From the NCBI GenBank assembly GCA_021107855.1, contig JAIORZ010000011.1:199686-263685 (forward strand): 64,000 nt of DNA, read 5' to 3'. Under the pieces are notes generated by a model that was not told the DNA's origin, did no database searches, and was given only the letters and a program-made list of their open reading frames with translations. This DNA is from an archaeon. GTDB lineage: Archaea > Nanobdellota > Nanobdellia > Pacearchaeales > GW2011-AR1. The position numbers and the translations under genes are program-made. This document shows positions 1 to 64,000 of this stretch, one piece after another (positions within the stretch are counted from its first letter, which is position 1; every line of letters begins with the position of its first letter).

Positions 1-663
1 CATTAGATAGAAACTTCTTTCTTTAGTGGGGTAGTCTTTTTCTTTTTCTGTCATTCCGGCGTCTTCCATAATCTTTACGCATTTATTCTGGCTTCGGATT
101 TCCCAGAATTTTGATTTTATTTTTGAGAATTTCTCTTGTAGTGCGATGTATTCGGTGTCATCTCTTGTTTTGATGAGGTCTTTTATTTCTGTCGCTAGTT
201 CTGATATTTGGTCTTTCAGCTCGTCTTCTTCGCTGATGCCAAGTGCTACGAGGTTGTAGTCTAGGGTGTATAATTTTTCGGTATCTTCCTCTCGTTCTTC
301 GTAGTATTCTCTGTCTCGTCGGAAAAAGGAATGTGCTTCAAAGACTATGTAGAAGTCCTCGGTTTTGAATTTTTTTTCGTATTCTGGTTTGTAATAGTCT
401 CGCTTGTCTTCTTTATCGGTTTTTGTTAGGATGGATTTTATTTCGGTTTCTGTGAATGCTCGTTTGTGGTCTCGGTCGAGGTCTTCGTACATTTTGTTTC
501 TGGTATAGTCTATGTAGACAATTAGTTGTGGTGCGTTTAGTTCTCCTGAGTTGTATTCTGTGATGTATTCATCTATTTCGTTGAAATTTGATTGAAGGGA
601 TGCGGAAGTTAGAGGGAAGATTATTGTTAATGCTAAAAGTAGGGTCACCAATTCTTTTTTCAT
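1..663 (-). CDS. hypothetical secreted protein; C-terminal part runs off the window
   Basis: My translation of the minus strand from ATG (663..661) gives MKKELVTLLLALTIIFPLTSASLQSNFNEIDEY..., a signal-peptide-like N-terminus. The frame stays open for all 221 codons to position 1. It is absent from the ORF track because it is truncated. Confidence 0.55.
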   Translation of the reverse strand, partial: MKKELVTLLLALTIIFPLTSASLQSNFNEIDEYITEYNSGELNAPQLIVYIDYTRNKMYEDLDRDHKRAFTETEIKSILTKTDKEDKRDYYKPEYEKKFKTEDFYIVFEAHSFFRRDREYYEEREEDTEKLYTLDYNLVALGISEEDELKDQISELATEIKDLIKTRDDTEYIALQEKFSKIKSKFWEIRSQNKCVKIMEDAGMTEKEKDYPTKERSFYLM

Positions 664-707
664 TGGTTATTGTTGGGACTTGGGGTTTATATAGTTTTTT
701 CGTCGGG

Positions 708-3572
708 CTATATCTTCAAAGATATTATTTTTGAAATATTTTCTTGCATAGATACGCCGTAGATATTTGAGGCTTCGGAGATTAGGGTGTCGTTGTGGGT
801 GATGATGATGTATTGTCCTGTTGTCATGTATTTTTTGATTAGGGCAGATAGGAGTTCGGAGTTGTGTTTGTCTAGGGCGGCGTCTATTTCGTCGAATACG
901 TAGAAGCAGTAGGGTCGGTATTCTTGGATTGCGAAGATTAGGGAGAGTGCTACGAGGGTTTTTTCTCCGCCGGAGAGGGACGTGATGTCGAAATATCGTC
1001 CTCGGGATACTTTTACTAGGATGCTTAGTCCGCCGCTGAATGGGTCGGATTTGTTTTCTAGTTCTAAAGTGACCTCGCCTTTTCTTGAGAGTTGTGTGAA
1101 GTTTCGTGTGAAATATTGGTTTATTGCGTTTAGAGTTATTAGGAAAGATTTCTTTTTCTTTTTGTCTATTTCGGATATTATTTTTTCTATCTTTTCTTTT
1201 TCTTTAGAGATTATTATGACTTTTTCTTCTATTAATTCTACTTGTTTGCTTACTTCTTCGAAGACTTCTAGGGCTCGGAGGTTTACGTTTCCTAGGCGAG
1301 AGAGTCTGAATTGGGATTTTTGGAGACGTTCTTTGATTTGTTCGACTGGTAGGGCTAGGGTTTCGACTTGGTGGAATTCTGTTAGTTCGGATTTTAGAGA
1401 ATCTATTTGAGCTGAGGTTTGGGCTCGTTGTATTTTGAAGTAGTTGATTTTATCTTCGAGGTTTTTAATTGTGTGTTGGAGTCCGATGATGTCGGTTTCT
1501 AAAACTTTTTGTTGGTCTTGCAAATGGTTTCTTTCGTCGAAGAATTTTTGAGCTTTTTCGTAGAGTTTTTGTTCTTCAATTTCTTTTTTGATGGCTTCTT
1601 TATCTTTTTCGGTTATTCGTACTTCTATTTTTTTCAGTTCGATTTGGGAGTCTTCCATGTCTCTTGTGATTGATTTTATTTCTACTGAGAGACGGTTTAT
1701 TTCTCGTTGTTTGACTGTTATCTCGGTGTCTATGTCCATGTCTGCGAATGATATTTCTTGGAGGGAGAGTCTTGTTTCGTCGTATTTCTCTTCGATGTGG
1801 GCGAGTTTTTGGTATTCAGATTTTATTTTATGAAGTTGTTCGTTTGTTGAGGATAGTTCTTTTTTGGTTTCATCTTGATTGTTGGATATTTTTTTGATTT
1901 GTTCTTTTTTCTCATCTGAATTTTTTAGTTTGATTAGGTCGATACTGAGTTCGTTTGATTTTAGCTGGAGTTGTCCGAGTCTTTCTTTGAGGTGGTTTAT
2001 TTCTGTGGTGTTTTTGGTTTTTTCTATGAGGTTTTTTTGTATTTCTGAAGAGGCAGAGTTTATTTTGCCGTTTGCTGTTGTTGAAATTTTGTGTTTGTGT
2101 TTTTCGCCGACGTCTTGTTTGCATATTGGACAGGATTTTAGTTGTACTATGTCGGATTTTAACTTGTCTTCTCGTTTTACATCCATTTCCAATATAGCGT
2201 TTCTCTTTTCTTTCTCTAGGATTTCTTTCTCTAGAGAGGAGATTTTTTCTATTATATTTTTTAGTTTTTCTTCGGTTTCTAATTTTAGTTGTTCGTTTTC
2301 TGGGATTGATTTTGTGTATTTGATTTCTTGAAAAAGAGAGGTTATTGTTTGTTCGATTAATTGGACTTCTTTTTGAGATTCGATTAGGAATTTTTCTTTT
2401 GAGGTTTTTTGGTTTTCGAGTGTTGAAAGGTCGGATTTTAGCATGTAGAATTTTCTTCGTTGTTTTTCTAGGATATCGAATTTTTCTTGGAGGATTTTTT
2501 GCTGTTCTTGTTGTTTTTTTATCTCGGGGGATGCGGTTTGTATTTTTGATATTTCGAGTTCTAGTTTTTCTGTTTTTTCTTTTAGATGTGATGTTTTTTC
2601 TTGTCCTTGGGTGAGTCTGTTGTCGAAGTTTTCACGTCGCACGTCTAATCCTGCCAGCTCGGCTTTTAGGTCAGATATTTCTCTGTGTAAAGTTTCTTGT
2701 TCGTTGGAGGTTGAGGATTGGATTTGTTTGTTCGTTATTAGAATTTTGTTTTGGAATTCTTCGACTTTGAAGTTTTTTTCGGTTATTCGTTTTTTCAGTT
2801 TTTCTATTTGTTCGTTGTGTTCTGATATTGTTTTTTCAGTTTTTTCGATTTCTGTTTCTTTGAGGTTTTTTGTTTTAGATAGGAGGGTTTTTTTGCATCG
2901 CTTTATTGTGGTTTCTAATTTTTGATAAGAGACCGCCTCTTCTCGTTCTCTGTTTAAATTTTTTAAGTAAGAGGTTCTTTCTTTTAGGACGGAGGATACT
3001 TCTTTCAGTTTCTCTTCGGTTTTTGTGAGTTCTTTCAGGGATTTTTGTTTTCTTGTTTCGTAGACTGAGATTCCTGCGACTTCTTCGATTATTTTTCGTC
3101 GTTCTTCTGGGGTTGCTTTTACTAAGGATTGAATTTCTCCTTGGAGTACTATATTGAATCCGTTTGGGTCGACGCCGGCTTGGGCTAAAAGTTCTAGAAT
3201 TTCTTGACGGGTTTTTGTTTTGTTGTTGATTTTGTAAATGGATTGACCGGTTTTTCTTACGATTCTTTTAACTGTGACTTCTTTGTCGTCGATTGCGAAG
3301 GTTTTGTCTGCGTTGCAGAAGGTTAGGGTGACGGATGCTTCTTGGGAGCCTTTGTATATTTTGTTTCCGGAGAAGATGAGGTTCGCGGCTTTTGCGGCTC
3401 TTATGCTTTTGATGCTTAATCTTCCTAGTACGAAGCAGAGTGCGTCGGTGATGTTTGATTTTCCGGAGCCGTTTGGTCCGACGATGATGTTCATTGAGTT
3501 GTCTAGGGGGATTTCGGTTTTTTGGGCGAAGGACTTGAATCCTTTGAATATCATCCTCTTTATATGTGTCAT
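708..3572 (-). CDS. smc: SMC-family chromosome segregation ATPase, hinge-less, with central CxxC hook-like motif
   Basis: 954 aa. Heads are SMC-type: FKGFKSF, Walker A GPNGSGKSN, NIVLQGEI..PEERR, signature LSGGEKT, Walker B FYVFDEIDAALD. A long K/E/Q coiled coil lies between them. No globular hinge is visible; CPIC sits at residues 481-484 (nt 2121..2132), the midpoint. Confidence 0.85.
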   Translation of the reverse strand: MTHIKRMIFKGFKSFAQKTEIPLDNSMNIIVGPNGSGKSNITDALCFVLGRLSIKSIRAAKAANLIFSGNKIYKGSQEASVTLTFCNADKTFAIDDKEVTVKRIVRKTGQSIYKINNKTKTRQEILELLAQAGVDPNGFNIVLQGEIQSLVKATPEERRKIIEEVAGISVYETRKQKSLKELTKTEEKLKEVSSVLKERTSYLKNLNREREEAVSYQKLETTIKRCKKTLLSKTKNLKETEIEKTEKTISEHNEQIEKLKKRITEKNFKVEEFQNKILITNKQIQSSTSNEQETLHREISDLKAELAGLDVRRENFDNRLTQGQEKTSHLKEKTEKLELEISKIQTASPEIKKQQEQQKILQEKFDILEKQRRKFYMLKSDLSTLENQKTSKEKFLIESQKEVQLIEQTITSLFQEIKYTKSIPENEQLKLETEEKLKNIIEKISSLEKEILEKEKRNAILEMDVKREDKLKSDIVQLKSCPICKQDVGEKHKHKISTTANGKINSASSEIQKNLIEKTKNTTEINHLKERLGQLQLKSNELSIDLIKLKNSDEKKEQIKKISNNQDETKKELSSTNEQLHKIKSEYQKLAHIEEKYDETRLSLQEISFADMDIDTEITVKQREINRLSVEIKSITRDMEDSQIELKKIEVRITEKDKEAIKKEIEEQKLYEKAQKFFDERNHLQDQQKVLETDIIGLQHTIKNLEDKINYFKIQRAQTSAQIDSLKSELTEFHQVETLALPVEQIKERLQKSQFRLSRLGNVNLRALEVFEEVSKQVELIEEKVIIISKEKEKIEKIISEIDKKKKKSFLITLNAINQYFTRNFTQLSRKGEVTLELENKSDPFSGGLSILVKVSRGRYFDITSLSGGEKTLVALSLIFAIQEYRPYCFYVFDEIDAALDKHNSELLSALIKKYMTTGQYIIITHNDTLISEASNIYGVSMQENISKIISLKI

Positions 3573-4272: not shown

Positions 4273-4324
4273 AGGATTATAATATTAGTTAGATTTAAAA
4301 GTCTTGAGTTTAGTTTATTTATAT

Positions 4325-4400
4325 AGCGGGGTGGAGCAGTCTGGTCAGCTCGTGAGGCCCATAACCTCAAGGTCACGTGGTTCAAATCCCGTCTCCGCTA
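4325..4400 (+). tRNA. tRNA-Met (CAU), probably initiator
   Basis: Cloverleaf folded by hand: acceptor AGCGGGG/CTCCGCT with A1:U72 (archaeal initiator hallmark), D arm GAGC..GCTC, anticodon stem TGAGG/CCTCA, loop CCCATAA. The T arm has one extra nucleotide (ACGTGG vs CCCGT). No encoded CCA. Confidence 0.8.
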
Positions 4401-4457
4401 TTTTGTTTTTGGACGTGATTTGAACAAGTTCAAAACCCTGCTCGCAATTCACACTAA

Positions 4458-4492
4458 AATTTTGTCTTATAATTGAATAATCAGACAAAATT
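4458..4492. other. 10-bp A/T-rich hairpin downstream of tRNA-Met
   Basis: AATTTTGTCT (4458..4467) pairs perfectly with AGACAAAATT (4483..4492) around a 15-nt loop. Confidence 0.5.
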
Positions 4493-4571
4493 CGCGCAAA
4501 TTGTTCGTCCGCTATGTTGTTTTCTGTTTATATGCATAATTTTATAATCCCATTTGGTTGCTTATTTTTAT

Positions 4572-4656
4572 GTGGGGATGCCGGAGTGGCCAAACGGGCT
4601 GGACTTAAGATCCAGTGGCATCTTTGCCTACGGGGGTTCGAATCCTCCTCCCCACA
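4572..4656 (+). tRNA. tRNA-Leu (UAA)
   Basis: Acceptor GTGGGGA/TCCCCAC, anticodon stem CTGGA/TCCAG with loop CTTAAGA, long variable arm, T loop TTCGAAT. TATA-like TTTTATAAT lies about 25-30 nt upstream. Confidence 0.9.
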
Positions 4657-4708
4657 TTGTTAAGGGCGTTAGGGGTAGCTTTTTATAGGGAGAATTGCCT
4701 GATGTTTT

Positions 4709-6317: not shown

Positions 6318-8039
6318 ATGAAGTTAGCGATTATTGATAGGGAAAAGTGTAAGCCGTCCGTTTGTGGTCGGGAGTGTAAGAAATATTGTCCGGTTGAGAA
6401 GCAGGAGGTGGATAGTTGTGTTATGATTGGGGAGAAATGTTTGATTGATGAGCATGCTTGTGTAGGGTGTAGTATTTGTGTGAAGCGGTGTCCGTTTGGG
6501 GCGATTAATGTTGTGAATTTGCCGTCGGTGTCGGAGAAAGATATTGTGCATCGGTATGGTGAGAATGGGTTTGCGCTTTATGGGTTACCGATTCCGAAAG
6601 AGGGGAGCGTTCTTGGTTTGCTTGGGAGAAATGGGATTGGGAAGAGCACGGCGGTTAGTATTTTAGCTGGGAATGAGAAAATGAATTTGGGGCGGAATGT
6701 GGCGAGTGAAGAAGATGTTAAGGAATTTTTTAAGGGGAATGAAATTTTGAGATATTTTGAGGGGCTTGGGGGCAAAAAGGTTTCTTATAAACCGCAGAAT
6801 TTGTCTAGTCTGGCGATTGATGTTGGAGTGATGGAGTTGTTGTTGAAGCGAGGTTCGGAAGATAAGATTAAAGAGTTGGCTGAAGTTTTGGGGGTTGGTC
6901 AGGTTTTGGGGAATAAGATGGATAAGTTGAGTGGCGGTGAGTTACAGAGGATTGCGATTTTGGCGGCTAGTTTGGGTGAGAGTGATATCTATTTTTTTGA
7001 TGAGCCTTTGGCGTTTTTGGATATTGGGGAGAGGTTGAGGGTTTCGGATTTTTTAAGGGAGTTGTCTAAGAACAAGACGTTGATTGTTGTTGAGCATGAT
7101 TTGTTGATTTTGGATTATTTGACTGATTATGTGAATGTGTTTTTTGGTGGGCAGGGGGCGTTTGGTTTGGTGAGTGGGGTTAAGAGTTCGAAGGTCGGGG
7201 TTAATGCTTATTTGGATGGGTTTTTGAAAGAGGAGAATATGAGGATTCGGGATAAAGCGTTGCGGTTTGATTTTACGCGGAATGCTTTGATGAGTGGTTT
7301 GAAAATTGCGGAGTGGCCGAATTTTAGTTTGGAGTTTGACAGTGGGTTTAAATTAGATGTTAAAGGTGGAAAAATTCATGAGAATCATGTTATTGGGGTT
7401 TTGGGGAAGAATGGGACGGGGAAGACGAGTTTTGTTAAAGCTTTGGCGGGGGAGTTGGAGACGGATAAGGGTAAGTTAGATTTGAAACTAGACATTTCGT
7501 ATAAGGAGCAGTATTTGTTTTCGGAGAGCGAAGGGTTGGTTAGGGATGTTTGTTTTAAGGAGAAGATTAGTAAGAGGTTGAAGAGTACTTTTAATTTGGG
7601 AGTTTTGGAAGGGAAGCAGATTAAGAATTTGTCTGGTGGGGAGTTGCAGAGGTTTTCGGTTGCTCGGTGTTTGGCGAAGGATGCGGATGTTTATTTGATT
7701 GATGAGCCTAGTGCTTATTTGGATGTTGAGGAGAGGATTTCGGTCGCGAAGGCGATTAAGGATATCATGGTTGAGAGGGGGAAGACGGCGTTTGTTGTTG
7801 ACCATGATTTGTTGGTTGTTTCGTATTTGGCGGATTCGATTATTAATTTTGATGGCGAGGGTGGGGTTAAGGGAGAGGCTGGTGAGGTTGTGGAGTTTGA
7901 GGAGGGCGTTTCTAATCTTTTGAAGAGTTTGGATGTTACGTTGAGGAAGGATAAGGAGAGTGGGAGGCCGAGGATTAATAAGAGAGGGAGCGTTTTAGAT
8001 AGGGAGCAGAAGGCGAAAGGGAAGTGGGCTGTTTTTTAG
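6318..8039 (+). CDS. abce1: ABCE1 / RNase L inhibitor-type ribosome recycling ATPase
   Basis: N-terminal 2x[4Fe-4S] ferredoxin Cys clusters (CKKYCP, CVGCSICVKRCP) and two ABC cassettes (GRNGIGKST, GKNGTGKTS; two LSGGELQR). The ORF track starts at a TTG; the ATG at 6318 (MKLAIIDREKC) is the likely start. Confidence 0.92.
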   Translation: MKLAIIDREKCKPSVCGRECKKYCPVEKQEVDSCVMIGEKCLIDEHACVGCSICVKRCPFGAINVVNLPSVSEKDIVHRYGENGFALYGLPIPKEGSVLGLLGRNGIGKSTAVSILAGNEKMNLGRNVASEEDVKEFFKGNEILRYFEGLGGKKVSYKPQNLSSLAIDVGVMELLLKRGSEDKIKELAEVLGVGQVLGNKMDKLSGGELQRIAILAASLGESDIYFFDEPLAFLDIGERLRVSDFLRELSKNKTLIVVEHDLLILDYLTDYVNVFFGGQGAFGLVSGVKSSKVGVNAYLDGFLKEENMRIRDKALRFDFTRNALMSGLKIAEWPNFSLEFDSGFKLDVKGGKIHENHVIGVLGKNGTGKTSFVKALAGELETDKGKLDLKLDISYKEQYLFSESEGLVRDVCFKEKISKRLKSTFNLGVLEGKQIKNLSGGELQRFSVARCLAKDADVYLIDEPSAYLDVEERISVAKAIKDIMVERGKTAFVVDHDLLVVSYLADSIINFDGEGGVKGEAGEVVEFEEGVSNLLKSLDVTLRKDKESGRPRINKRGSVLDREQKAKGKWAVF

Positions 8040-8710: not shown

Positions 8711-10438
8711 ATGAAAGAAGTTGTTGTTAAGTTGATTGCAAAGGAAGTTAGTCTGGATGTTTCTGAGGTTGAAAATTCGATTGAGGTTCCGCCTAAGTCG
8801 GAGATGGGGGATTTTGCGTTCCCTTGTTTTGGGTTGGCTAAGTCAGAGAAGAAACCTCCGGTTATGATTGCTCGGGATTTGGTTGGGAAGTTTATGGTAA
8901 ATTTGCCGAAAGAAATTGAGAGGGTTGATGTTGATGGGGCTTATGTGAATTTTTTTGTTGATAAAAAGATTCTGGCTGGTGAGGTTTTGAAAAAGGTTGA
9001 GGAGAAGGGTTTTGGGAAGTTGGATTTGGGGAAGGGGAAGAAAAGACTTGTTGAGTATTCGCAGCCGAACACGCATAAGGCGTTTCATGTTGGTCATATA
9101 AGGGGGACTTCTTTGGGCGAGAGTTTGGCTCGGATTTTTAGAGCTTGTGGGGAGAAAGTCGTTCAGATGAATTATAGTGGGGATAGTGGGATGCATATTG
9201 CGAAGTGGATTTGGTGTTATCGGAAATATCATAAGAAGGAAAAATTGAGCGATGATGAATCTTGGATTGCCGGAATTTATGTTGATGCGGTTAAGGGGAT
9301 TAGTGAAAATGAAGAGTTTCAAGAGGAGGTTGATAAGATTAATAGGAAGATAGAGAGTGGAGGAGATAAGGCGATTAATGCTTTGTGGAAGAAGACTCGG
9401 GCGATGTCGATTAAGTCTTGGAAGAGAATTTATGATGAGTTGGGTGCGCATTTTGATGTTAGTTTTTTTGAGAGTGAGTTTGAGGAGGCTGGGAAAGATG
9501 AGTCGCTTAAGTTGTTAGAAAAGGGAATTGCGAAGAAGGATGATGCGATTTTTATGGATTTGAAGGATTTTGGACTTGGGGCTTGGGTTTTGTTGAGGAA
9601 GGACGGGACGGTTTTGTATTCAGCGAAGGATATTGCTTTGGCTTTGAGGAAGTTTAAGGATTATAAGAGTGATAATTATTTGATTTGTATTGGAAATGAG
9701 CAGAAGTTGCATTTTGAGCAGTTGGTTAAGACGTTAGAGTTAATGGGGTTGAAGGACGAGGCTTCGAGGTATGGGGTTTTGCCGTTTGGGATGGTTCGGT
9801 TTCCTGAGGGGAAGATGAGTTCTAGGAGTGGTGCGAATGTTTTGTATTCGGATTTTTTTAAAGAGGTTGTTAAAGTTGCTAAGGATGGGCTTAAGAAGAG
9901 GGGACATGAGGGTAATGATATTGATAAAAGAGCTTTGAAGATTGCGGTTGCTTCGGTTAAGTATTCGATGTTGAAGCAGGGGCCAAAGAAGACGATGATT
10001 TTTGACCCTAGGGCGGATGTTGCGTTTGAAGGGGATACCGGTCCTTATTTGTTGTATTCGTATGCTCGGGCTTCTAGTATTATTAGAAAGGTTAAGAGTG
10101 CACGTAATAGTGTACCCTCTAAGGTGGGCACTGGTGTGCCGTCTTTATCGGGCAAAGCCAAAGTTAAGATTAGTAAGTTGGAGGATTCTGAGGTTAAGTT
10201 GGTTAAGAAAATTGATGGATTTGAGGATGTTGTTGGTCGGGCTTATGAGGGGTTGGCGCCGAATTTGATTGCGAATTATTGTTTCGAACTGGCGAAGGAT
10301 TTTAATGAGTTTTATCATGCGTGTCCGGTTTTGGGGAGTGAGAGTGAGGGATTTCGATTGGCGCTTGTTGGGGCGTTTCGGTTAACATTAGGAAAAGGAT
10401 TGGAATTATTAGGAATAGAGAAATTAGAAAAAATGTAA
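8711..10438 (+). CDS. argS: arginyl-tRNA synthetase
   Basis: 575 aa with class I HIGH-like motif HVGHIRG, KMSKS-like MSSRSG, and a C-terminal DALR-type anticodon-binding region. Confidence 0.9.
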   Translation: MKEVVVKLIAKEVSLDVSEVENSIEVPPKSEMGDFAFPCFGLAKSEKKPPVMIARDLVGKFMVNLPKEIERVDVDGAYVNFFVDKKILAGEVLKKVEEKGFGKLDLGKGKKRLVEYSQPNTHKAFHVGHIRGTSLGESLARIFRACGEKVVQMNYSGDSGMHIAKWIWCYRKYHKKEKLSDDESWIAGIYVDAVKGISENEEFQEEVDKINRKIESGGDKAINALWKKTRAMSIKSWKRIYDELGAHFDVSFFESEFEEAGKDESLKLLEKGIAKKDDAIFMDLKDFGLGAWVLLRKDGTVLYSAKDIALALRKFKDYKSDNYLICIGNEQKLHFEQLVKTLELMGLKDEASRYGVLPFGMVRFPEGKMSSRSGANVLYSDFFKEVVKVAKDGLKKRGHEGNDIDKRALKIAVASVKYSMLKQGPKKTMIFDPRADVAFEGDTGPYLLYSYARASSIIRKVKSARNSVPSKVGTGVPSLSGKAKVKISKLEDSEVKLVKKIDGFEDVVGRAYEGLAPNLIANYCFELAKDFNEFYHACPVLGSESEGFRLALVGAFRLTLGKGLELLGIEKLEKM

Positions 10439-23488: not shown

Positions 23489-23592
23489 GAATATGTTTTG
23501 CGTTGTCTGTTTATAATATTTTGTATGGTGTAAACAAAAAGGAGGTTAATTAGTAGAAGCCAAACGTTTAATTCCGGAGGAAAGAGTATAAA

Positions 23593-23624
23593 GGAGAGTA
23601 ATGATTTTTACTTCATTACTCTCC
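23593..23624. other. perfect 12-bp hairpin in an unassigned non-coding region
   Basis: GGAGAGTAATGA (23593..23604) pairs with TCATTACTCTCC (23613..23624) around an 8-nt loop. Flanked by direct repeats GAAGCCAAA at 23556..23564 and 23634..23642. Confidence 0.6.
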
Positions 23625-50698: not shown

Positions 50699-52116
50699 AA
50701 TAATTCCTTTAGTGTGTCGCTCACATCTTTCCCCGAGACTTGTCCTTTGAATTTTTGCATTAGTAGCCCCATGTAGGCTCCTTGAGAAAGATTAGGTTTT
50801 TGTTTTATGATTTTTTGTGCTTCGGATTTTAGGTCGATGTCGGATTTTTCCATGGCTTTTTCTAAGGGGATTCCTTGTGTGATTTTTTGTAAGATTAATT
50901 TCACATCATTGGCGGATATTTTTTTGTCGACTTGTTCGAGGATGGCTTCGAGAGTGTGAGGATTTAAGATTGTTATTATTTCTTCTAGTGGTTTGTTCTC
51001 TTTTTTGGCGATTTCTTTTGGGAAGATTGTTAGGGATTTTGCGATTAGTTCGTGGTTGGGAATTGTTTTTGCGAGTATTTTGAATTCTTCTATTTTGTTT
51101 CGTTTTAGTATTAATCTTATTAGTTCGTCGTTTAATCGGAATTCTTTTAGGTAGGATGAATTTTGGGATGCTAGTTTCGGTAGGTTCTTTTTGGTTTCGT
51201 CGATTAGGTTTCGGGGGATTTTTAAGAGAGGGTGGTCGGTTTCGGGATACATTCGTGCAGCGCCTGGCATTGGTCTTAGGAATTCTGTTGTTCCGTCGGG
51301 TAGGGCGTTTCTGACTTCATTTTTGCAGATTTTTTCTTTGACGCATTTTTCTTGTCTTGCGATTTCTATGTCTATTGTTTTTATCATCATCTTTGGATTT
51401 TGGAATCCTTTTATTTCTACTCGTTTGCTTCCGGTGATTGAGATGTTAACGTCTTGGCGGATTGTTCCGAGTCCTCGTTTGACTTTGCAGGCTCGTAGTA
51501 TTTCTCCGATTTTTAGGGCGACTTCTTTTATTTCTTCGGGTGTGTGCATGTGTGGTCCGGTTGCGATTTCGACTAGGGGGATTCCTAATCTATCTAGTTT
51601 GTAGGTTGTTTTGGAATCTGGGGTTTTTCTGGCGGAGTCTTCTTCTAGCATTAGGTAGTCGATTGCGATTTTTTTGCCGGATGATATTTCGATGTAACCG
51701 TCGTGGGCGATTAGTGCTGTTCGTTGGAAGCCGGAAGTGTTGGATCCGTCGGTTACGGTTTTTCTCATGATTTGTGTGACTGGGAAAATTTTGCAGTTTA
51801 GGAGATGGGCGATTTGGAGTGAGATTTTTATGGCTTCTTGATTTATTGTGTGGGGCGGTTCTTCGTCGAGTTCTACTAGGCAGTTTGTGTCGTAGACTTG
51901 GTAGGTGAAGTCTTTGTTTTGGGTTGCTTCGTGTGCTACGGCTCGGTCTATTTTTCCGGTTTCTCCGATGACTGGATTGAGGGTTCGGTGGATTTCGTAT
52001 TGGGGTTCGTCTTGTCGGAGGAGAGAGGGGCAGTCGCAAAATAATTTGTGGGTGTCTAACTGTTGGTGAATTTCCAATCCGGATTTTAGGCCTAATTTTT
52101 TGTAGTCGTGTTCCAT
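50695..52116 (-). CDS. gatE: Glu-tRNA(Gln) amidotransferase subunit E, short form
   Basis: GLKSGLEIHQQLDTHKLFCDCP, DGSNTSGFQR, RGLGTIRQDVNISI, LPDGTTEFLRPMPGAARMYPETD. Only 473 aa. Confidence 0.75.
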   Translation of the reverse strand: MEHDYKKLGLKSGLEIHQQLDTHKLFCDCPSLLRQDEPQYEIHRTLNPVIGETGKIDRAVAHEATQNKDFTYQVYDTNCLVELDEEPPHTINQEAIKISLQIAHLLNCKIFPVTQIMRKTVTDGSNTSGFQRTALIAHDGYIEISSGKKIAIDYLMLEEDSARKTPDSKTTYKLDRLGIPLVEIATGPHMHTPEEIKEVALKIGEILRACKVKRGLGTIRQDVNISITGSKRVEIKGFQNPKMMIKTIDIEIARQEKCVKEKICKNEVRNALPDGTTEFLRPMPGAARMYPETDHPLLKIPRNLIDETKKNLPKLASQNSSYLKEFRLNDELIRLILKRNKIEEFKILAKTIPNHELIAKSLTIFPKEIAKKENKPLEEIITILNPHTLEAILEQVDKKISANDVKLILQKITQGIPLEKAMEKSDIDLKSEAQKIIKQKPNLSQGAYMGLLMQKFKGQVSGKDVSDTLKELL

Positions 52117-52178
52117 GGGTATGAAGATATGTTAAGGTTTAAATAAGTTGTTTTCTTGAGTGAGGGAAGGAGGTAAAG

Positions 52179-52439
52179 ATGAAGTTAACTAAAATTAATT
52201 ATGGGTCGGCTGTGTTTTTCGGGCTTATTGCTTTTGCTATGTATCTGGCTGTAGGAATTTTGCAATGGAGTTTGCGAGAGGTTTTGCTTGGTCAAGGAAT
52301 GATGGTTACTGCGGTTTCGTCCTTTGTTTACGGCCCAATTATTGGTGGTATCGTTGGATATTTGAGCGCGCTTGCTGTGATTGCGATTTATAATCTTGTA
52401 GCGAAAAAATACCCGATTGCTTGGACAATCAAAAAGTAA
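52179..52439 (+). CDS. small membrane protein
   Basis: 86 aa with 3 hydrophobic helices. Confidence 0.55.
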   Translation: MKLTKINYGSAVFFGLIAFAMYLAVGILQWSLREVLLGQGMMVTAVSSFVYGPIIGGIVGYLSALAVIAIYNLVAKKYPIAWTIKK

Positions 52440-52457
52440 TTTTTAATCTCGATTTTT

Positions 52458-52520
52458 AGCGTAAATTTCTTGGTAAAAAATTTCTTATGTGTGTTTGCAC
52501 ACGGCGAAATTTTTTACGCT
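52458..52520. terminator. A/T-rich hairpin with two alternative left arms and an inner GTGTG/CACAC hairpin
   Basis: GTAAAAAATTTC (52473..52484) pairs with GAAATTTTTTAC (52506..52517). AGCGTAAA (52458..) can alternatively pair with TTTACGCT (..52520). Lies between convergent genes. Confidence 0.45.
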
Positions 52521-52578
52521 TTGAAATTTTCTGCTATAAATCAAAATTGTTGTTTTTATTTATCTCATTAGAGATTTT

Positions 52579-53793
52579 TTAGAGTTTTTCTTTTGGGTTC
52601 CAGGTTTTGTGTCCTAGAATCCATCCGAGTTTTACGTATGCGGTTTCGGTTGTTTCGTTTAGGAAGATGATGCCGGTTTTTTGGAGGTCTCGACCTGGGG
52701 TGTATACGTTTGGGTTGAGGAGTCCGTATGTTGTCTGTGCTGTTGCGACCATGGTTACTCCGTTTTGAATAGATTTTTTTATTTTTGGAATCCAGTTTGC
52801 TCGAGATTCTTTAGTTGGGACGTGTCCTAATCCTGTTGCTTCTAAAATTATTCCCTTGTAGCCTTCTTTTTGGTAGTAGTCTAATATTGAGGGGTTTTGT
52901 CCAGGGTGGATTTTTATTATGGCGATTTTGTCTGAGAATTTTGTGTCGATTTTTGGCTTTGAGTTTGAGCGGGCGTTGAATGTTTTTAGGATTTCAATTT
53001 TGTTTGGTGTGATTCTTGCTATCGGTGTTGCGTTGATTGGTTTGAATGTGTCTCTGCGGGAGGTGTGCATTTTTTTTGCTTTGGATGCTGGGATTGCTAG
53101 GCAGGATGAGTCGTCTTGGTTTTCGTGTCCGATTAATGCGATTTCTGCAATGTCGGATGTTGCGTATTTTGCTGCGCAGATTAGGTTGAAGGCGGCGTCT
53201 GTTGAGGCTCGGTCGATGGAACGTTGGGAGTAGGTTAGGGCTATTGGTTTGTTTAGGTTTTGGATGAAAAAGTGTAGTGCGGCTCCGGTATAGTGGAGGG
53301 TGTCGGTTCCGTGGGTTAGGATGATTCCTGAGATTGAGTCGTCGTTTAGGTATTTTTCGCAGGTTTCGGCGATTGTTTTCCAGTCTTGTGGGTCCATGTC
53401 TTCGGAGGATTTCATGAAGGGGCTTTCGATTATTGGATTGCAGATTTCTTTTAGTTCGGGTGCGATTGTGAGGATTGTTTCTTTGTCTGTTGAGATAACG
53501 CCGCCTGATTTTGGGTCGAGTCGGGAGGATATTGTCCCTCCTGTTATTATTATTGCGACGTTGGGTAAATTAGAATTTGGAGCTTGTGTTTGTGTTTCGC
53601 TTGTTGGCTTTTCGGATTTTTTTATGATAGTTGCGTTTAGGATTTCTGATTCGCGGATTCCGATGTTGTAGCCGGATTTTATTTTTAGGAGGATTATTTC
53701 TGGGTCGTGGGATTCTAGGGCGTGGCCTTCCCATGTTTTTGTTTTTGTTTGGAGTTTGATTTTGTCTCCGGGGTGGAAGGTTTTTGTTTTCAT
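52579..53793 (-). CDS. gatD: Glu-tRNA(Gln) amidotransferase subunit D
   Basis: 404 aa with asparaginase-type motifs ITGGTISS and THGTDTL. Confidence 0.88.
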   Translation of the reverse strand: MKTKTFHPGDKIKLQTKTKTWEGHALESHDPEIILLKIKSGYNIGIRESEILNATIIKKSEKPTSETQTQAPNSNLPNVAIIITGGTISSRLDPKSGGVISTDKETILTIAPELKEICNPIIESPFMKSSEDMDPQDWKTIAETCEKYLNDDSISGIILTHGTDTLHYTGAALHFFIQNLNKPIALTYSQRSIDRASTDAAFNLICAAKYATSDIAEIALIGHENQDDSSCLAIPASKAKKMHTSRRDTFKPINATPIARITPNKIEILKTFNARSNSKPKIDTKFSDKIAIIKIHPGQNPSILDYYQKEGYKGIILEATGLGHVPTKESRANWIPKIKKSIQNGVTMVATAQTTYGLLNPNVYTPGRDLQKTGIIFLNETTETAYVKLGWILGHKTWNPKEKL

Positions 53794-54398: not shown

Positions 54399-54452
54399 TC
54401 TGGAAAGTTTATTTTTCAATAACTTTTTATATGAACTTCTCTAATTTTGCTC

Positions 54453-55889
54453 ATGATGGGGAAGCGTAAAAACATGTCTTTTAAAAAGGAAGTTGGGGAT
54501 TCATCCTCGTCGGATAAAGCGTTTCCGGTCAAGATTGGGTTGGAGGTTCATGGGTATTTGGATAGTCGGGAGAAGTTGTTTTGTATGTGTCGGACGGATT
54601 TTTTGGAGTCGGAGGCGAATAGCAGGATTTGTCCGATTTGTACGGGGACGCCGGGGTCGAAGCCGATGGCTGTGAATTTGGAGGCGGTGCGGAAGATGGT
54701 GCAGATTGCGATTGTTTTTGGGTCGAAGATTAATCTTGAGACGACTTGGCAGAGGAAGCATTATGATTGGGCGGATTTGCCGAAGGGGTATCAGACGACG
54801 ATGTCGGGGGCGCACGCGAAGGTGAACGCGGTTGGGGGGAAGTTTCGGGGGATTAATATTACGGAGTTGCATTTGGAGGAGGACCCGGCGCAATGGAATC
54901 CGGATTCGGGGAGGATTAATTATAATCGGAGCGGGTTGCCGTTGATTGAGATTGTGACGGAGCCGGAGTTTAGTGATAGTGAGCAGGTTGTTGAGTGGTT
55001 GAAGGGTTTGCTTTTGTCTCTTAGTTATATTAAGGCGGTGCGGAAGAATGCGGGGATTAAGGTTGATGTGAATGTTTCGACTTATGGGGAGCGGGTTGAG
55101 ATGAAGAATTTGAATTCGTTGGAGAAGATTAGGAAGGCGATTGATTATGAGGTTGTTCGGCAGGTTGAGGCTTACGATGCTGGTAAAACCCAGCCCAGAG
55201 AGACGATGGCTTATGATGAGTCGAAGGGGATTACGGTTAAGATGAGGTCGAAAGAGGGGGCTGCTGATTATAGGTTTGTTCCTGACCCGGATTTGCCAGT
55301 GATGAAGATAGATGAGAAGATGGTGAAGGAGATAAGGGCTGGGATGCCGGAGATGCCGGAGGTTAAGCTGGAGAGGTTGTTGAAAAAGTATGAGGTTGGG
55401 GAGAAAGATGCGAAGATTTTGACGAGGAATTTGGAGCTTGTTGATTTTTTTGAGAGGTTGGCTGGGAATGGGATTAACGCTAAGAAAAATATAAGTTGGA
55501 TTACAATTGAGTTGATTAGGGTTTTGAATTATAATAAGAAGAGTTTGGAGGATGCGGATGTTGAGATTTTGCCGGAGCATTTGGCGGAGTTGATTGAGGC
55601 GGTTGAGGCTGGGGATATTACGGTTTTGAAGGGGAAGCAGATTATGAATGATTTTGTGCCGAGGAGTTTTTCGTTGAGGGAGCATAAGGGGGAGATTGGG
55701 AATATTGATGAGGCGGCGGTTGAGAATTTGTGTAGGCAGGTGATTAGTGAGAATGCGCATGTTGTTGAGGAGTATAGGGCGGGGAAGGTGGCTTCTCTTA
55801 ATTTTTTGATTGGGGGAGTTATGCGGTTGAGTGAGAGAAGGGCGGATTTTAAGGTGGCGGGGGATTGTTTGAAGAGGTTGATTGGATGA
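54453..55889 (+). CDS. gatB: Asp/Glu-tRNA amidotransferase subunit B
   Basis: KIGLEVHGYL..KLFCMC, LHLEEDPAQ, GIKVDVNVS, and a C-terminal YqeY-like LIGGVMRLSERRADFK. Confidence 0.88.
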   Translation: MMGKRKNMSFKKEVGDSSSSDKAFPVKIGLEVHGYLDSREKLFCMCRTDFLESEANSRICPICTGTPGSKPMAVNLEAVRKMVQIAIVFGSKINLETTWQRKHYDWADLPKGYQTTMSGAHAKVNAVGGKFRGINITELHLEEDPAQWNPDSGRINYNRSGLPLIEIVTEPEFSDSEQVVEWLKGLLLSLSYIKAVRKNAGIKVDVNVSTYGERVEMKNLNSLEKIRKAIDYEVVRQVEAYDAGKTQPRETMAYDESKGITVKMRSKEGAADYRFVPDPDLPVMKIDEKMVKEIRAGMPEMPEVKLERLLKKYEVGEKDAKILTRNLELVDFFERLAGNGINAKKNISWITIELIRVLNYNKKSLEDADVEILPEHLAELIEAVEAGDITVLKGKQIMNDFVPRSFSLREHKGEIGNIDEAAVENLCRQVISENAHVVEEYRAGKVASLNFLIGGVMRLSERRADFKVAGDCLKRLIG

Positions 55890-55913: not shown

Positions 55914-56228
55914 TTAATATTTAAATTTCTTTTCATATGTTTTATGGTTTACCCAATCTAAGATAATTACTACAACCACAGCTTTCCCTCCTTGTATGGA
56001 GTAAAGGAGTCTCCATGCTCCAGGAAGGTTATATTTCCATAAATTATTATTATTTTTATATTCTTTTGGAATTTGTTTCTTGGGAATTTGTATTCCACAG
56101 AAAGGATTTTTTTCAATTTCACACAGGGCACTATCTATTTGTTTTCTTAGGGACTCTTTGGTGTCTATTTGTTGATAACTTTTTTGTATTTTTTTATCTA
56201 CAAATTGTATTTTACAGGGCTTATCCAC
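55914..56228 (-). CDS. RelE/ParE-superfamily toxin-like protein
   Basis: 104 aa. The C-terminal half NLWKYNLPGAWRLLYSI..VVVIILDWVNHKTYEKKF fits the RelE-like pattern. Confidence 0.6.
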   Translation of the reverse strand: MDKPCKIQFVDKKIQKSYQQIDTKESLRKQIDSALCEIEKNPFCGIQIPKKQIPKEYKNNNNLWKYNLPGAWRLLYSIQGGKAVVVVIILDWVNHKTYEKKFKY

Positions 56229-56508
56229 TTTCTTTTTGTCCCCTCCATGCCAAATGCGCTTTTTTAAGTCTTTTTTCTGATTCTTCTGGATAAAATATCC
56301 AACCTATTTTCCCTTCACTATCTACAGAAATCTTTCCAGAAACCAGAAGGTAATCTATGATTGTGCTATATGTTTGGTACATCATTTTCTTAGGCAAATT
56401 TTCCCACATTTTCTTTTTTTTATATTCTCCATCATTTTCTTTTATGAATTTTTCCACCATTAAGACAGTATCTAGTCTAGGTGACCGCGAAAGAGTTTTG
56501 CTTCCCAT
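56221..56508 (-). CDS. putative antitoxin / wHTH protein
   Basis: 95 aa from ATG 56508. 8-nt overlap with the downstream toxin-like gene. Confidence 0.5.
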   Translation of the reverse strand: MGSKTLSRSPRLDTVLMVEKFIKENDGEYKKKKMWENLPKKMMYQTYSTIIDYLLVSGKISVDSEGKIGWIFYPEESEKRLKKAHLAWRGQKESG

Positions 56509-56581
56509 TATTTTTAACTCCACTCTTTTTCCTAAAAACTCCTAGGGCACCTCCCTCTCTTCATCATCACCATCTCCATAG

Positions 56582-56601
56582 GGTATATCATATGATATAC
56601 C
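56582..56601. promoter_or_regulatory. perfect 20-nt palindrome upstream of the toxin-antitoxin pair (candidate operator)
   Basis: GGTATATCATATGATATACC, about 75 nt upstream of the antitoxin start. Confidence 0.5.
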
Positions 56602-56656
56602 TTATAAACCTTTCTGTTTATATAAAATATTATAAAGTTGTAATATCTGTAATAAT

Positions 56657-56980
56657 ATGGGTATATTTTTCAAAAAGAAAAAGAAGCCTGGCATGGTTTA
56701 TCTCGGGGAGGTTACTTGTAAGAATGATTCTAAAAAAATATATACTGGTATGACTCGCAGGGCTGTTAAAGTAAGAACTAGTGAGCATGCGAGGTCGCAG
56801 AATGCTAAAAAGAAAAAGACTTGGGTGAGTAAACAGAAAGATTACAAGTTGAAGGGGGCTTTCTGCAGTAGGAATCCGGAGAAAGCGGAAAGGACTGTTA
56901 AAAAATTAAAGCCGCATCAGAAAAGATATTTGGCGCGAGGAGCGGCGATGAAATATAGGCGAAGGATGAAGAAGATATAG
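56657..56980 (+). CDS. small GIY-YIG domain protein
   Basis: MVYLGEV....KIYTGMTRRAVKVRTSEH fits GIY..YIG..R..EH spacing. Very basic C-terminus. Confidence 0.55.
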   Translation: MGIFFKKKKKPGMVYLGEVTCKNDSKKIYTGMTRRAVKVRTSEHARSQNAKKKKTWVSKQKDYKLKGAFCSRNPEKAERTVKKLKPHQKRYLARGAAMKYRRRMKKI

Positions 56981-57015
56981 ATTAATTATTTAAACCTCAA
57001 TCTCCTACACAACCC

Positions 57016-57183
57016 ATGGCAAAAAAGAAAAAAGAGGACAAATCTGGCTTGTTCATTCCGGCTGGTCTTTTCTTGGGTCTTGGTTGGGGCGCTTTGTATG
57101 ACAACTATTCGGCTGGCGTTTTGCTTGGGCTTGGCGTCGGGTTTTTAGGGATGGCGATTGCTAGTTTTTGGGGACGGAAGTGA
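57016..57183 (+). CDS. small membrane protein (55 aa)
   Basis: My translation: MAKKKKEDKSGLFIPAGLFLGLGWGALYDNYSAGVLLGLGVGFLGMAIASFWGRK. TGATG overlap with the next ORF. Confidence 0.45.
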   Translation: MAKKKKEDKSGLFIPAGLFLGLGWGALYDNYSAGVLLGLGVGFLGMAIASFWGRK

Positions 57184-57365
57184 TGGACTTGAGAGAATTG
57201 ATATTTAAGGAACAAAAGGGAGACGGTGTTTTGGCGATTGTGTTTTTGGTTATTGCTTTGGGTCTTGCGGTTGTTGGTTATGTGAGAGGTGAGGGTGTTT
57301 GGTATATTAGGACGGGGATATTTTGTGTTGCTGTTTTGTTTTTGTTGTGGAGGCGGGGGCGATAA
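57183..57365 (+). CDS. small membrane protein
   Basis: MDLRELIFKEQKGDGVLAIVFLVIALGLAVVGY... with two TM helices. Confidence 0.45.
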   Translation: MDLRELIFKEQKGDGVLAIVFLVIALGLAVVGYVRGEGVWYIRTGIFCVAVLFLLWRRGR

Positions 57366-57382
57366 TTTAGAATCAGTCCAGA

Positions 57383-57700
57383 TTAAACTTCTTTTGAAAT
57401 TCTTTTGATTAAATCTTCTTTGTGTTCGGGCTTACAATATAAAACGATGCCTTCTTTGTATCTTGCTAGTTTTTCTTTAGTGTGACAGTGGGCGTCTCCG
57501 CCGATTACCCAGATTCTTGAATTTGTTTTTGGGTCGGAATAGATGTCGTAGGGGTGGGTGTAGAGACCATTCTTTTCTACGAGGTTGAAAGGGAAGCCAA
57601 TAGTGGCTTGTGCCTTTAACATATTTCTGAGATGGTTTCTTGGGAACATTAGTCCTGTTCCGCCTTCGGTTTCGTAGTCGAAAAATTGTTTTTCTGTCAT
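57383..57700 (-). CDS. hypothetical protein, tandem paralog 2
   Basis: Shares FDYET..GTGLMF.RN...FPF.L.EKN.L..HPYDIY.DPKTNS.IWV.G.DAHCH..EK...YKEGI..YC.P.HK.DLIK with 57715..58038. Confidence 0.65.
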   Translation of the reverse strand: MTEKQFFDYETEGGTGLMFPRNHLRNMLKAQATIGFPFNLVEKNGLYTHPYDIYSDPKTNSRIWVIGGDAHCHTKEKLARYKEGIVLYCKPEHKEDLIKRISKEV

Positions 57701-57714
57701 GGCTTTTGGTTGTT

Positions 57715-58038
57715 TTAAAAACAACTCACCCTCAAAATTTTTTTAATCAAATCTTTTTTATGTTTGGGCTCACAGTAGATGCCGATTCCTTCTTTGTATT
57801 CCCATTGTTTTTCCCCAACATGGCAGTGGGCGTCGTTTCCCATTACCCAGATTTCTGAGTTTGTTTTTGGGTCGGTGTAGATATCATAAGGGTGACTAAG
57901 GAGGTCGTTTTTTTCTGTTAGGTCGAAAGGGAATTTCGTGGCCCATTTTAGATTCGACTTGTTCCTGAACTGGTTTCTTATGAACATTAGTCCGGTTTTG
58001 CATTTGGTTTCGTAGTCAAAGGAGATTTTGTCTGTCAT
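57715..58038 (-). CDS. hypothetical protein, tandem paralog 1
   Basis: See 57383..57700. The paralogy supports both as real genes. Confidence 0.65.
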   Translation of the reverse strand: MTDKISFDYETKCKTGLMFIRNQFRNKSNLKWATKFPFDLTEKNDLLSHPYDIYTDPKTNSEIWVMGNDAHCHVGEKQWEYKEGIGIYCEPKHKKDLIKKILRVSCF

Positions 58039-62910: not shown

Positions 62911-63831
62911 ATGGTTTTTAAGAATGAGTTTTCGTGGTCGAAGTCGCGGGATGGGACGTTTGGGGAATGTAAGAGGAAGTATTTTTTTAATCATTATGGA
63001 TTTTGGGATGGATGGATTGCGAGTGAGGACGATAGGATTAAGCGAATTTATTATTTGAAGAAGTTGGCGACGAAGGAACTTTGGATGGGGAGTGTTGTGC
63101 ATGGGGTGATTGAGTTTATTTTGAGGAGGTTTCGTGTTGGGGAGGAGGTGAGTTTGGGGCATGCTTTGGCGGTTTTAAGGAAGAGGATGGAGAGTGATTT
63201 TGCGATTTCGAAATTGAAGGAGTATACTGGGTTTATGAGTAAGGCGCATCGGTTTTTTGAGGATGAGTATGGGATTGAGATTAGTGATGAGGAGAGGAAG
63301 GGCTTGGGGCAGAAGGCGGAGAAGTGTTTGAGGAATTTTTATAATTCGGATATTTTTATGGAGATTCGGCGGACTCCTGTTGAGGATTGGATTACTTTGG
63401 AGGATTTTTTGTCGTTTGATTTTGAAGGGACACAGGTTTATCTTAGTATTGATTTTGCGATGAAGGTTGGGGATGAGGTGATTCTTTATGATTGGAAGAC
63501 TGGTGGCGAGAGGAAGGCTGATTATAAGTTGCAGTTAAGTTTGTATGCGCTTTATGTTTCTGAGAAGCTTGGTATACCGGCTGATAGGATTAAGGCGAGG
63601 ATGTTTTATTTGGCTTTGGGGGAGTCGGGGAAGGTGGACTCTTTTGAGGTGGACTCTGAGGGGCTTGAGGAGGTGAGGGAGTATTTGCGGGCGTCGGTTT
63701 TGGAGATGAAGAAATTATTAGTGGACGTGACGGAGAACGAGGCTGTGGAGGAGGACTTTGAGAAGTCGGAGGGGTTTTGGTGTTCGCGGTGTAATTTCCG
63801 GAAGGTTTGCTTGGAGGGGTGGGGGACTTAG
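62911..63831 (+). CDS. PD-(D/E)XK (Cas4/RecB-like) nuclease with Cys cluster
   Basis: IDFAM..ILYDWKTG (D..D/ExK), QLSLYALY (QxxxY), one N-terminal Cys (ECKRKY) plus C-terminal CSRCNFRKVC. Confidence 0.7.
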   Translation: MVFKNEFSWSKSRDGTFGECKRKYFFNHYGFWDGWIASEDDRIKRIYYLKKLATKELWMGSVVHGVIEFILRRFRVGEEVSLGHALAVLRKRMESDFAISKLKEYTGFMSKAHRFFEDEYGIEISDEERKGLGQKAEKCLRNFYNSDIFMEIRRTPVEDWITLEDFLSFDFEGTQVYLSIDFAMKVGDEVILYDWKTGGERKADYKLQLSLYALYVSEKLGIPADRIKARMFYLALGESGKVDSFEVDSEGLEEVREYLRASVLEMKKLLVDVTENEAVEEDFEKSEGFWCSRCNFRKVCLEGWGT

Positions 63832-64000
63832 GGACAGGGGGTGCTTGTTTTTGATTTATTTCTGTCACATATTTTTTTACTTTATCTCCTGAGGTGACTG
63901 GTGTGACGCCGTTCTTTTTTCTTGTGAAGAAGAAGATAACTAAGGCTATAATTATTATAAGAAGAGTTGCGGGGATTGTTATCCAAAGTAGAGAGGATGT
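63590..64000 (-). CDS. possible membrane protein; N-terminus off window, P/T/S-rich tail antisense to the nuclease gene
   Basis: The minus frame is open from the window edge: ..LLWITIPATLLIIIIALVIFFFTRKKNG.. (clear TM helix). No stop occurs until 63590, so the last about 80 codons overlap the convergent gene and may be a stop-poor artefact. Confidence 0.3.
   Translation of the reverse strand, partial: TSSLLWITIPATLLIIIIALVIFFFTRKKNGVTPVTSGDKVKKYVTEINQKQAPPVPKSPTPPSKPSGNYTANTKTPPTSQSPPPQPRSPSRPLIISSSPKPTPANTPSPPQAPQSPPQKSPPSPTPPKPNKTSSP

Follow-up and report, generated by a model that had tools for sequence, protein, structure and literature searches.

The window analyzed here is a stretch of 64,000 nucleotides (nt) from an archaeon of the Pacearchaeales lineage GW2011-AR1 in the Nanobdellota (contig JAIORZ010000011.1, positions 199,686 to 263,685, assembly GCA_021107855.1). 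Its + strand is rich in G and T under genes of either orientation, and this strand skew is bound to the physical strand, not to transcription. The skew is mutational in character, and it is heritable, graded and clade-specific among the relatives of this organism. The pattern is best explained by an excess of C→T and A→G transitions that is strand-asymmetric and linked to replication, an explanation to which we assign a probability of about 0.7.

1..64000, + strand: keto-rich physical strand, G+T 64.6%, GC skew +0.36, TA skew +0.245, sign constant

The base totals of the window are A 14488, C 8181, G 17429 and T 23902, i.e. the + strand has a GC skew of +0.361, an AT skew of −0.245 and an excess of G of 144 per kb. 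Parity rule 2 is broken on this strand, where G exceeds C and T exceeds A, which is the Lobry-type pattern. The purine content is 49.9%. Purines are therefore balanced and the skew is a pure keto/amino asymmetry. When the window is divided into 32 bins of 2 kb, the GC skew is positive in 31 bins and the AT skew is negative in 31 bins. The cumulative skew shows no lasting reversal, one bin being marginally negative, and skew of the same sign extends into both flanks of the window, over 6.4 kb on the left and 10 kb on the right, giving about 80 kb in total. A preliminary description of this DNA, made from its letters alone, had stated that the + strand is keto-rich whatever the gene orientation and that no switch point occurs in 64 kb. 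Both statements are borne out, and there is no switch in the two flanks either. Its hand counts (A16 C3 G23 T18 at positions 6901-6960, A10 C7 G6 T37 at positions 1141-1200) are exact on recounting. The periodicity of the skew is also visible in runs. A pattern of 36 consecutive codons with G or T at each third base matches 443 times in the window, always on the + strand, where a shuffled sequence gives 0.01 matches; maximal runs of this type number 28 on the + strand and 0 on the − strand.

The validated gene set consists of 16 genes per strand, each confirmed by Pfam. Examples are listed below with the fraction of G+T at third positions of the coding strand (GT3) and the codon dialect, NNK (third base G or T) or NNM (third base A or C).

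6318..8039, + strand: ABCE1, NNK dialect, GT3 0.89
8711..10438, + strand: argS, NNK dialect, GT3 0.85
54447..55889, + strand: gatB, NNK dialect, GT3 0.93
708..3572, − strand: SMC, NNM dialect, coding GT3 0.12
11560..14442, − strand: ileS, NNM dialect, GT3 0.12, the marker for comparing relatives
45562..46890, − strand: gatA (amidase), NNM dialect, GT3 0.07, the most extreme gene
50695..53793, − strand: gatE and gatD, NNM dialect, GT3 0.11 and 0.09

The GT3 of + genes is 0.62-0.93 (mean 0.83) and that of − genes is 0.07-0.29 (mean 0.15). The two ranges do not overlap (Mann-Whitney p ~1.5e-6), and the equal third-position G+T on both gene strands that the preliminary description had named as fatal to its claim is not what is found. 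The GC skew at third positions (GC3 skew) is +0.78 in + genes and −0.68 in − genes, and the corresponding TA skew (TA3 skew) is +0.59 and −0.70. Third positions in − genes, which are read from the A+C-rich strand, have approximately A.49, C.36, T.08 and G.07. The earlier counts over the first 30 codons are likewise exact, i.e. 26 of 30 codons of ABCE1 (ATG at 6318) end in G or T and 23 of 30 codons of SMC end in A or C, with ATG making up 3 of the 7 exceptions. The gene names it had proposed (ABCE1, ArgRS, GatB, SMC, IleRS, GatE and GatD) are all supported by Pfam.

Fourfold degenerate sites also show the physical nature of the skew. The + strand composition at these sites is A.098, C.051, G.406 and T.445 under + genes and A.082, C.052, G.324 and T.542 under − genes, so that 85-87% of the sites are keto on the + strand for both gene orientations. 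This constancy of sign indicates that the skew is not transcription-coupled, as had been proposed. A minor coding-strand (purine) component is superimposed on the physical-strand component. The fraction of G+T on the + strand at third positions (physical keto3) is at least 0.51 in all 76 open reading frames of at least 60 amino acids (aa), and in most it is 0.7-0.93. The skew peaks at fourfold and third positions and is weaker at first and second codon positions.

Two controls were analyzed with the same script. E. coli shows a coding-strand pattern, with GT3 values of 0.563 and 0.565 on the two strands. The lp54 replicon of Borrelia burgdorferi displays a physical keto3 of 0.35-0.45 in one arm and 0.55-0.68 in the other, and the switch is located near the lp54 replication genes. 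The window has a physical keto3 of about 0.85, thus its deviation from 0.5 is 2-3 times that of Borrelia. The suggestion that the skew is much stronger than the Borrelia type is confirmed by these values.

Codon choice differs sharply between the two gene sets. TTG accounts for 68% of Leu codons in + genes and 2% in − genes, while CTA and CTC together account for 3% and 74%, respectively. AAG is used for 68% of Lys residues in + genes vs 6% in − genes, TTT for 95% vs 13% of Phe and AAT for 94% vs 22% of Asn. The proteins themselves are also shifted. Those encoded on the + strand are enriched in V (9.5 vs 4.1%), G (8.4 vs 5.4%) and R (5.2 vs 3.3%), and those encoded on the − strand in T (6.6 vs 2.8%) and Q (3.4 vs 1.8%), and also in H, N, I, P and K. 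Leu and Glu show no significant difference between + and − gene proteins. The amino acid lists of the preliminary description are therefore right for V, G and R in + genes and for K, N, I, T, Q and P in − genes, and wrong for L and E. Shifts of this kind are what C→T and A→G pressure should produce when it acts on the + strand.

Comparisons with orthologues point in the same direction. An amino acid index of IleRS follows the GT3 of the gene (r = 0.74, 75 orthologues). In ABCE1, a + strand gene, I→V replacements number 17 and V→I replacements 3, with a net gain of V, G, A and D; in IleRS, encoded on the − strand, the net gain is of T, S, H and Q. This replacement test is supportive only, as GC content is unequal among the reference sets and the ABCE1 comparison has a single unskewed reference.

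With respect to the underlying substitutions, fourfold sites on the + strand have a G/A ratio of about 4 and a T/C ratio of about 9-10, and A is depleted as strongly as C. Thus C→T change alone is insufficient, and A→G change must be strand-asymmetric too. The loss of C to T on one strand that was first suggested is retained as one component of the process, but a G/A ratio of about 4 requires A→G and C→T cannot be the sole cause. If the process is stationary and dominated by transitions, multiplying the strand-asymmetry ratio of C→T by that of A→G gives (T/C)x(G/A) on one strand. The resulting value is 36 in + genes and 41 in − genes, i.e. the combined asymmetry is about 40-fold.

A closely related locus, L091, is 90% identical to the window. 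Fourfold sites of the two are 77% identical, where saturation would give 40%. Among the sites that differ, 50 are A<->G, 36 C<->T, 49 G<->T, 8 A<->T, 6 C<->G and 1 A<->C. Scaled by the product of base frequencies, the exchangeability of transitions is about 6 times that of transversions, and it is similar for the two transition classes. These values imply a + over − strand asymmetry of about 6-fold for C→T and about 9-fold for A→G. There is no CpG or TpC depletion and no dinucleotide context signature (CpG ratio 1.06). Methylation and an APOBEC/DddA-like deaminase were considered and rejected, the dinucleotide context of either being absent. The slopes of G/(G+A), T/(T+C) and the keto fraction at fourfold sites against position are about zero (p 0.6-0.95), the 64 kb representing a small fraction of the genome.

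The IleRS sequence places this organism among Nanoarchaeota/Nanobdellota metagenome-assembled genomes labelled Pacearchaeota or Woesearchaeota, and the best GTDB representative by IleRS is 82% identical. Orientation-independent skew is found in five other species (loci L009, L010, L021, L070 and L008), where GT3 is 0.1-0.2 on one gene strand and 0.8-0.9 on the other. Altogether, at least 12 other species, drawn from different studies, show the phenomenon. The majority of relatives have an ordinary ileS GT3 of 0.45-0.63, and others are intermediate. The 13 loci whose ileS GT3 does not exceed 0.38 all group in a single clade of a neighbour-joining tree of IleRS, and the strength of the skew is graded within this clade. 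Its sister lineages have an ileS GT3 of 0.41-0.52.

Three loci, L034, L037 and L066 (GTDB contigs DAIQOR010000001.1, CAYOTW010000019.1 and CAYPFA010000001.1), display a moderately strong physical-strand skew, with ileS GT3 of 0.26-0.36, and are outside of the main skewed clade of the IleRS tree. Repeated origins of the trait, or an ancestral trait with variable loss, may account for this.

The GC3 and TA3 skews of ileS co-vary across 63 relatives (r = 0.93), and the GC3/TA3 slope is 0.97 in 18 skewed relatives. As the two skews scale jointly, a single factor is likelier than loss of one base-specific glycosylase alone. The clade shares a conserved gene order around ileS. The 82%-identical species (P0004) is abundant and is assembled as contigs of 465-502 kb, which suggests that genomes of this clade are about 0.5 Mb in size.

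Of the established processes, only replication treats the two strands differently across tens of kb independently of transcription. We infer the replication link from this, i.e. by elimination, and also the fork direction and the deamination chemistry. In the proposed mechanism, C→T and A→G changes on the + strand would far exceed the complementary changes, and unconstrained + strand sites would drift to about 86% G+T. The drift would pull synonymous codons to NNK in + genes and to NNM in − genes, and first and second positions, together with the amino acids, would shift too. The + strand would be the leading-strand sequence, i.e. the template of the lagging strand, which is transiently single-stranded, and forks would traverse the window from left to right. 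The bias may be driven by deamination of C (to U) and of A (to hypoxanthine) on the exposed single-stranded DNA, as on the mitochondrial heavy (H) strand, and the damage would be poorly repaired or the exposure unusually long. The deamination model has been reviewed for two kinds of strand, the G+T-rich mitochondrial H strand and the leading strand of bacteria (PMC3269012). The flat profile along the window slightly favors a constant leading/lagging difference over a mitochondrial gradient of exposure time.

Several observations weigh against this explanation. No sign switch, origin or terminus is seen in the approximately 80 kb of this organism. In strongly skewed relative loci there is no sign change in physical keto3, with weak candidates only in weakly skewed ones, e.g. 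L063, and a motif search of all loci examined gave no Orc1/Cdc6. Genes are not co-oriented with the presumed leading strand, as the validated genes number 16 on each strand and comprise 15.8 kb of coding sequence on the + strand vs 21.8 kb on the − strand. Gene co-orientation with the leading strand is weak or absent in many archaea; hence this point is not decisive. Short intergenic spacers (1895 nt in total; A.34, C.07, G.20, T.38) retain the GC skew, but the AT skew is lost and A is about equal to T, unlike at fourfold sites. The A content of spacers is attributed to A-rich promoter or ribosome-binding signals, which is an added assumption. The flat slopes argue against a simple mitochondrial gradient of time spent single-stranded, unless the bias is saturated. 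In addition, the rate ratios assume stationarity and reversibility, and the polarised spectrum (window, L091 and outgroups) contains too few ancestral C or A sites to show direction.

A variant that we regard as possible, though rather improbable, is that the whole chromosome of about 0.5 Mb has one keto-rich strand and no replichore of opposite sign, as a result of unidirectional or strand-displacement (mitochondrion-like) replication. It would account for the roughly 80 kb without a switch and for the finding that 0 of 120 close IleRS homologues has the amino acid signature of a strongly keto-rich strand. The genome is small, judging by the contigs of the related species, and there is a bacterial precedent in UBA1400, an order of Microgenomates in the candidate phyla radiation (CPR) (PMC7143001). 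However the 80 kb represents only about 16% of a 0.5-Mb genome, and the constant strand of ileS is explained by conserved synteny. The flat skew profile does not favor strand displacement, and Forterrea, the one DPANN genome with a published skew, shows the usual bidirectional pattern. We consider it a doubtful proposition that a clade of DPANN archaea with genomes of about 0.5 Mb exposes the same strand genome-wide, with no effective removal of deaminated bases. If true, this would be a cellular genome with true “heavy” and “light” strands, and with two codon dialects from end to end.

Polymerase error is an unlikely source of the skew, but one that fits many of the same observations. The enzymes that copy the two strands (e.g. 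PolB vs PolD, or one enzyme in two modes) would differ in G.T/T.G mispairing, and where mismatch repair is not effective the nascent + strand would gather C→T and A→G changes. Under this reading both transitions should affect the strand on which they are seen, GC and TA skews should scale jointly, and there should be a flat position profile and no dinucleotide signature (CpG ratio 1.06), all of which agrees with observation. To our knowledge, DPANN genomes commonly lack MutS/MutL. No result here separates polymerase error from deamination, and MutS-like genes in the window are limited to one weak match to an ATPase domain.

Archaeal skews have been traced chiefly to the orientation of genes (PMC12999951). 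A skew that follows gene orientation and merely looks strand-wide could stem from transcription-coupled mutation or repair, or from selection on the coding strand. The small coding-strand component at fourfold sites is of this kind, with G.41 and T.45 on the + strand under + genes vs G.32 and T.54 under − genes. As the cause of the skew, however, gene orientation is refuted by the coding GT3, which flips from 0.83 to 0.15 without overlap where E. coli shows virtually equal values, and its probability is very small. Codon-usage selection, whether by the tRNA pool or by translation, is similarly improbable as the origin of the two dialects. The codon preferences are extreme, but one tRNA pool cannot favor opposite codons by strand, and two strand-specific tRNA sets would be required; moreover the same physical-strand bias is present for both orientations, and spacers are C-depleted too.

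A sequencing or assembly artefact (strand-specific damage or a chimeric contig) has virtually no probability, as no evidence supports it and the window DNA is also assembled at 99.9-100% identity in independent assemblies (ENA ERZ26872897 and ERZ26872904, Logan SRR15668619 and SRR15668623) with one real single nucleotide polymorphism and otherwise only contig-end noise, the same phenomenon occurs in the other species mentioned above, open reading frames with strong Pfam matches are intact on both strands, and RNA genes are unaffected.

The RNA genes and one non-coding region are as follows.

4324..4657, + strand: tRNA-Met and tRNA-Leu(TAA), G ~ C, skew-exempt
36934..37008, + strand: tRNA-Asn, skew-exempt
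23489..24265, no strand: unskewed non-coding stretch of 777 nt, keto 0.49
23833-23931, − strand: match to the bacterial small signal recognition particle (SRP) RNA model, within the unskewed stretch
24147-24227, + strand: tRNA-Ser, within the unskewed stretch

The tRNA genes and the SRP RNA region are unskewed. The match at 23833-23931 is probably part of a longer archaeal SRP RNA. In the window and in relatives, tRNAs on either strand have G about equal to C and 0-2 G.U pairs, with the exception of one moderate-clade tRNA that has 4. All four tRNAs of the window are on the + strand. A preference of RNA genes for the keto strand, or an accumulation of G.U pairs, was considered and rejected; relatives carry tRNAs on the A+C-rich strand.

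Three islands in the window display a weaker skew and may represent recently acquired DNA that is not yet ameliorated.

25431..28976, − strand: T2SSE ATPase and small pilin-like genes, physical keto3 0.59-0.77
34376..36114, no single strand: DUF4145 gene (physical keto3 0.62) and an uncharacterized − strand open reading frame (0.51)
55914..58038, no single strand: small open reading frames, one with a weak GIY-YIG match, physical keto3 0.53-0.82

The − strand has 26% fewer stop triplets than the + strand. The long antisense open reading frames had been ascribed to this shortage of stops on a T-poor strand, which is correct in part; codon phase is chiefly responsible. In the phase that sets the first base of antisense codons opposite the third base of sense codons, the stop density in + genes is 0.016, and this low-stop phase gives rise to long false antisense open reading frames of up to 419 aa. 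The + strand bears antisense open reading frames of 100-150 aa too, in another phase. The longest example is the following.

54501..55760, − strand: spurious 419-aa antisense open reading frame inside gatB, its first codon base facing the sense third base

The skew is of a known kind. It is a replication-type strand asymmetry, of which Borrelia and mitochondria are the extremes and of which a form limited to G/C but spanning the whole chromosome is found in some CPR bacteria. What is new is the archaeal host, the amplitude of 144 excess G per kb, and the presence of equally strong and coupled GC and TA components in a defined DPANN clade. As in bacterial asymmetry of the Borrelia/Lobry type, one strand is richer in G+T irrespective of gene orientation and the effect is strongest at synonymous sites; in the extreme form of B. 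burgdorferi, codon and amino acid usage are split by strand as they are here. The differences are the archaeal host, the lack of a switch point in about 80 kb, the lack of a leading-strand gene bias, and the amplitude, with a physical keto3 of about 0.85 vs 0.55-0.68 and 0.35-0.45 in the two lp54 arms.

Third positions of mitochondrial L-strand genes resemble those of the − genes in the window. The vertebrate mitochondrial H and L strands are also G+T-rich and A+C-rich, both C→T and A→G are implicated there, and codon usage is strand-dependent (PMC3269012). Unlike mitochondrial DNA, the window is from a cellular chromosome of about 0.5 Mb with archaeal replication machinery, and no positional gradient of its skew is apparent over 64 kb, a small part of the genome in which the bias may be saturated.

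In genomes of the CPR order UBA1400, which includes Microgenomates Ch65, Collierbacteria and Beckwithbacteria, the cumulative GC skew is monotonic over the whole chromosome and unidirectional replication has been proposed (PMC7143001). The resemblance lies in an ultra-small uncultivated host, a GC skew of about 0.33 on one strand irrespective of gene strand (PMC7143001), the confinement of the trait to a clade, and the absence of a switch. However those organisms are bacteria without A/T disparity (A 27.9%, T 27.3%), whereas the window has an AT skew of −0.245 and TA3 skews of ±0.6-0.7, and its AT component scales one-for-one with the GC skew. In addition, the UBA1400 pattern is from closed genomes and the present one is known from about 80 kb.

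A study published in Front Microbiol in 2026 finds archaea to be largely without strand-specific mutational skew (PMC12999951). The organism studied here belongs to the same domain of life and has a small coding-strand component too, but its clade is a strong counter-example to that generalisation; DPANN and Nanoarchaeota are not mentioned in that study. According to the SkewDB figures quoted there, the mean excess of G per kb is 23-25 in bacteria and 7-8 in archaea (PMC12999951). The value of 144 for the window is about 20 times the archaeal mean quoted. The asymmetry rivals that of animal mitochondria and contradicts the view that archaea barely generate strand-specific mutational skew (PMC12999951). 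In the literature searched, no description of such a skew was found for Pacearchaeota, Woesearchaeota, Nanoarchaeota or DPANN. A 2026 preprint with 208 complete Nanobdellota genomes does not contain the word “skew” (10.64898/2026.05.13.725050).

The skew has consequences for several kinds of analysis. It constitutes a natural mutation-pressure experiment within one cell and with one tRNA pool, in which Val, Gly, Arg, Thr, Gln, His, Asn and Ile vary by coding strand. The placement of DPANN is disputed, and a strand-dependent amino acid bias could distort concatenated-marker DPANN trees. Annotation is at risk from false antisense open reading frames of up to 419 aa and from the two codon classes, by which gene callers, codon-based detection of transfer and expression predictors may be misled. 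With a signal of this strength, complete genomes of uncultivated archaea should directly reveal origins, termini and replication mode. The graded series of relatives permits a comparative search for a causal gene loss or change, e.g. in uracil/hypoxanthine repair, polymerase read-ahead or the single-stranded DNA-binding protein.

Some features of individual genes were also noted. Positions 45562-55889 contain two indirect aminoacylation systems grouped with a class II tRNA synthetase of the Asp/Lys/Asn family (47948-49234, called aspS). The − strand encodes GatD/GatE, GatA and aspS, whereas GatB is encoded on the + strand; thus the paralogues GatB and GatE are written in opposite codon dialects.

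The argS gene of the window displays 88% identity to that of L091 but only 44-48% to those of L089, L070, L009, L010 and L021, although the neighbours of argS in these five loci are 70-90% identical. The L054 argS is 71% identical to the window argS. From these identities, argS looks like a xenologous replacement within a conserved gene block. At L007:13762-14700 a TFB gene adjoins TrmB and ileS, where other relatives have argS. Among the 120 best homologues listed, the identity of TFB is at least 81%.

A 588-aa protein is encoded at 30611-32377 (+ strand). It has no Pfam match at 1e-4, and its NCBIfam matches, to the ATPase domain of MutS2/KamC, are weak. The protein is a candidate MutS-family-like ATPase, in a lineage whose mutation bias is extreme.

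An ADP-forming acetyl-CoA synthetase (Succ_CoA_lig) is found at L021:1015-2313, L005:807-2108 and L037:204-1508. In these three loci it adjoins pyruvate/2-oxoacid oxidoreductase genes, where the window has an AMP-forming acetyl-CoA synthetase. After ABCE1, the 82% and 70% relatives carry a heavy-metal P-type ATPase cluster (Cupin, DsbA/DsbD and HMA; L089:19421-22832 and L010:11930-14774, respectively). In place of this cluster the window has VTT, two tRNAs, RNase HII and SMC. The SMC protein of the window is short (954 aa), as is that of L009, and canonical relatives have about 1160 aa. In many relatives (P0241-P0263) SMC contains an intein or LAGLIDADG insertion and has a chain length of 1476-1491 aa.

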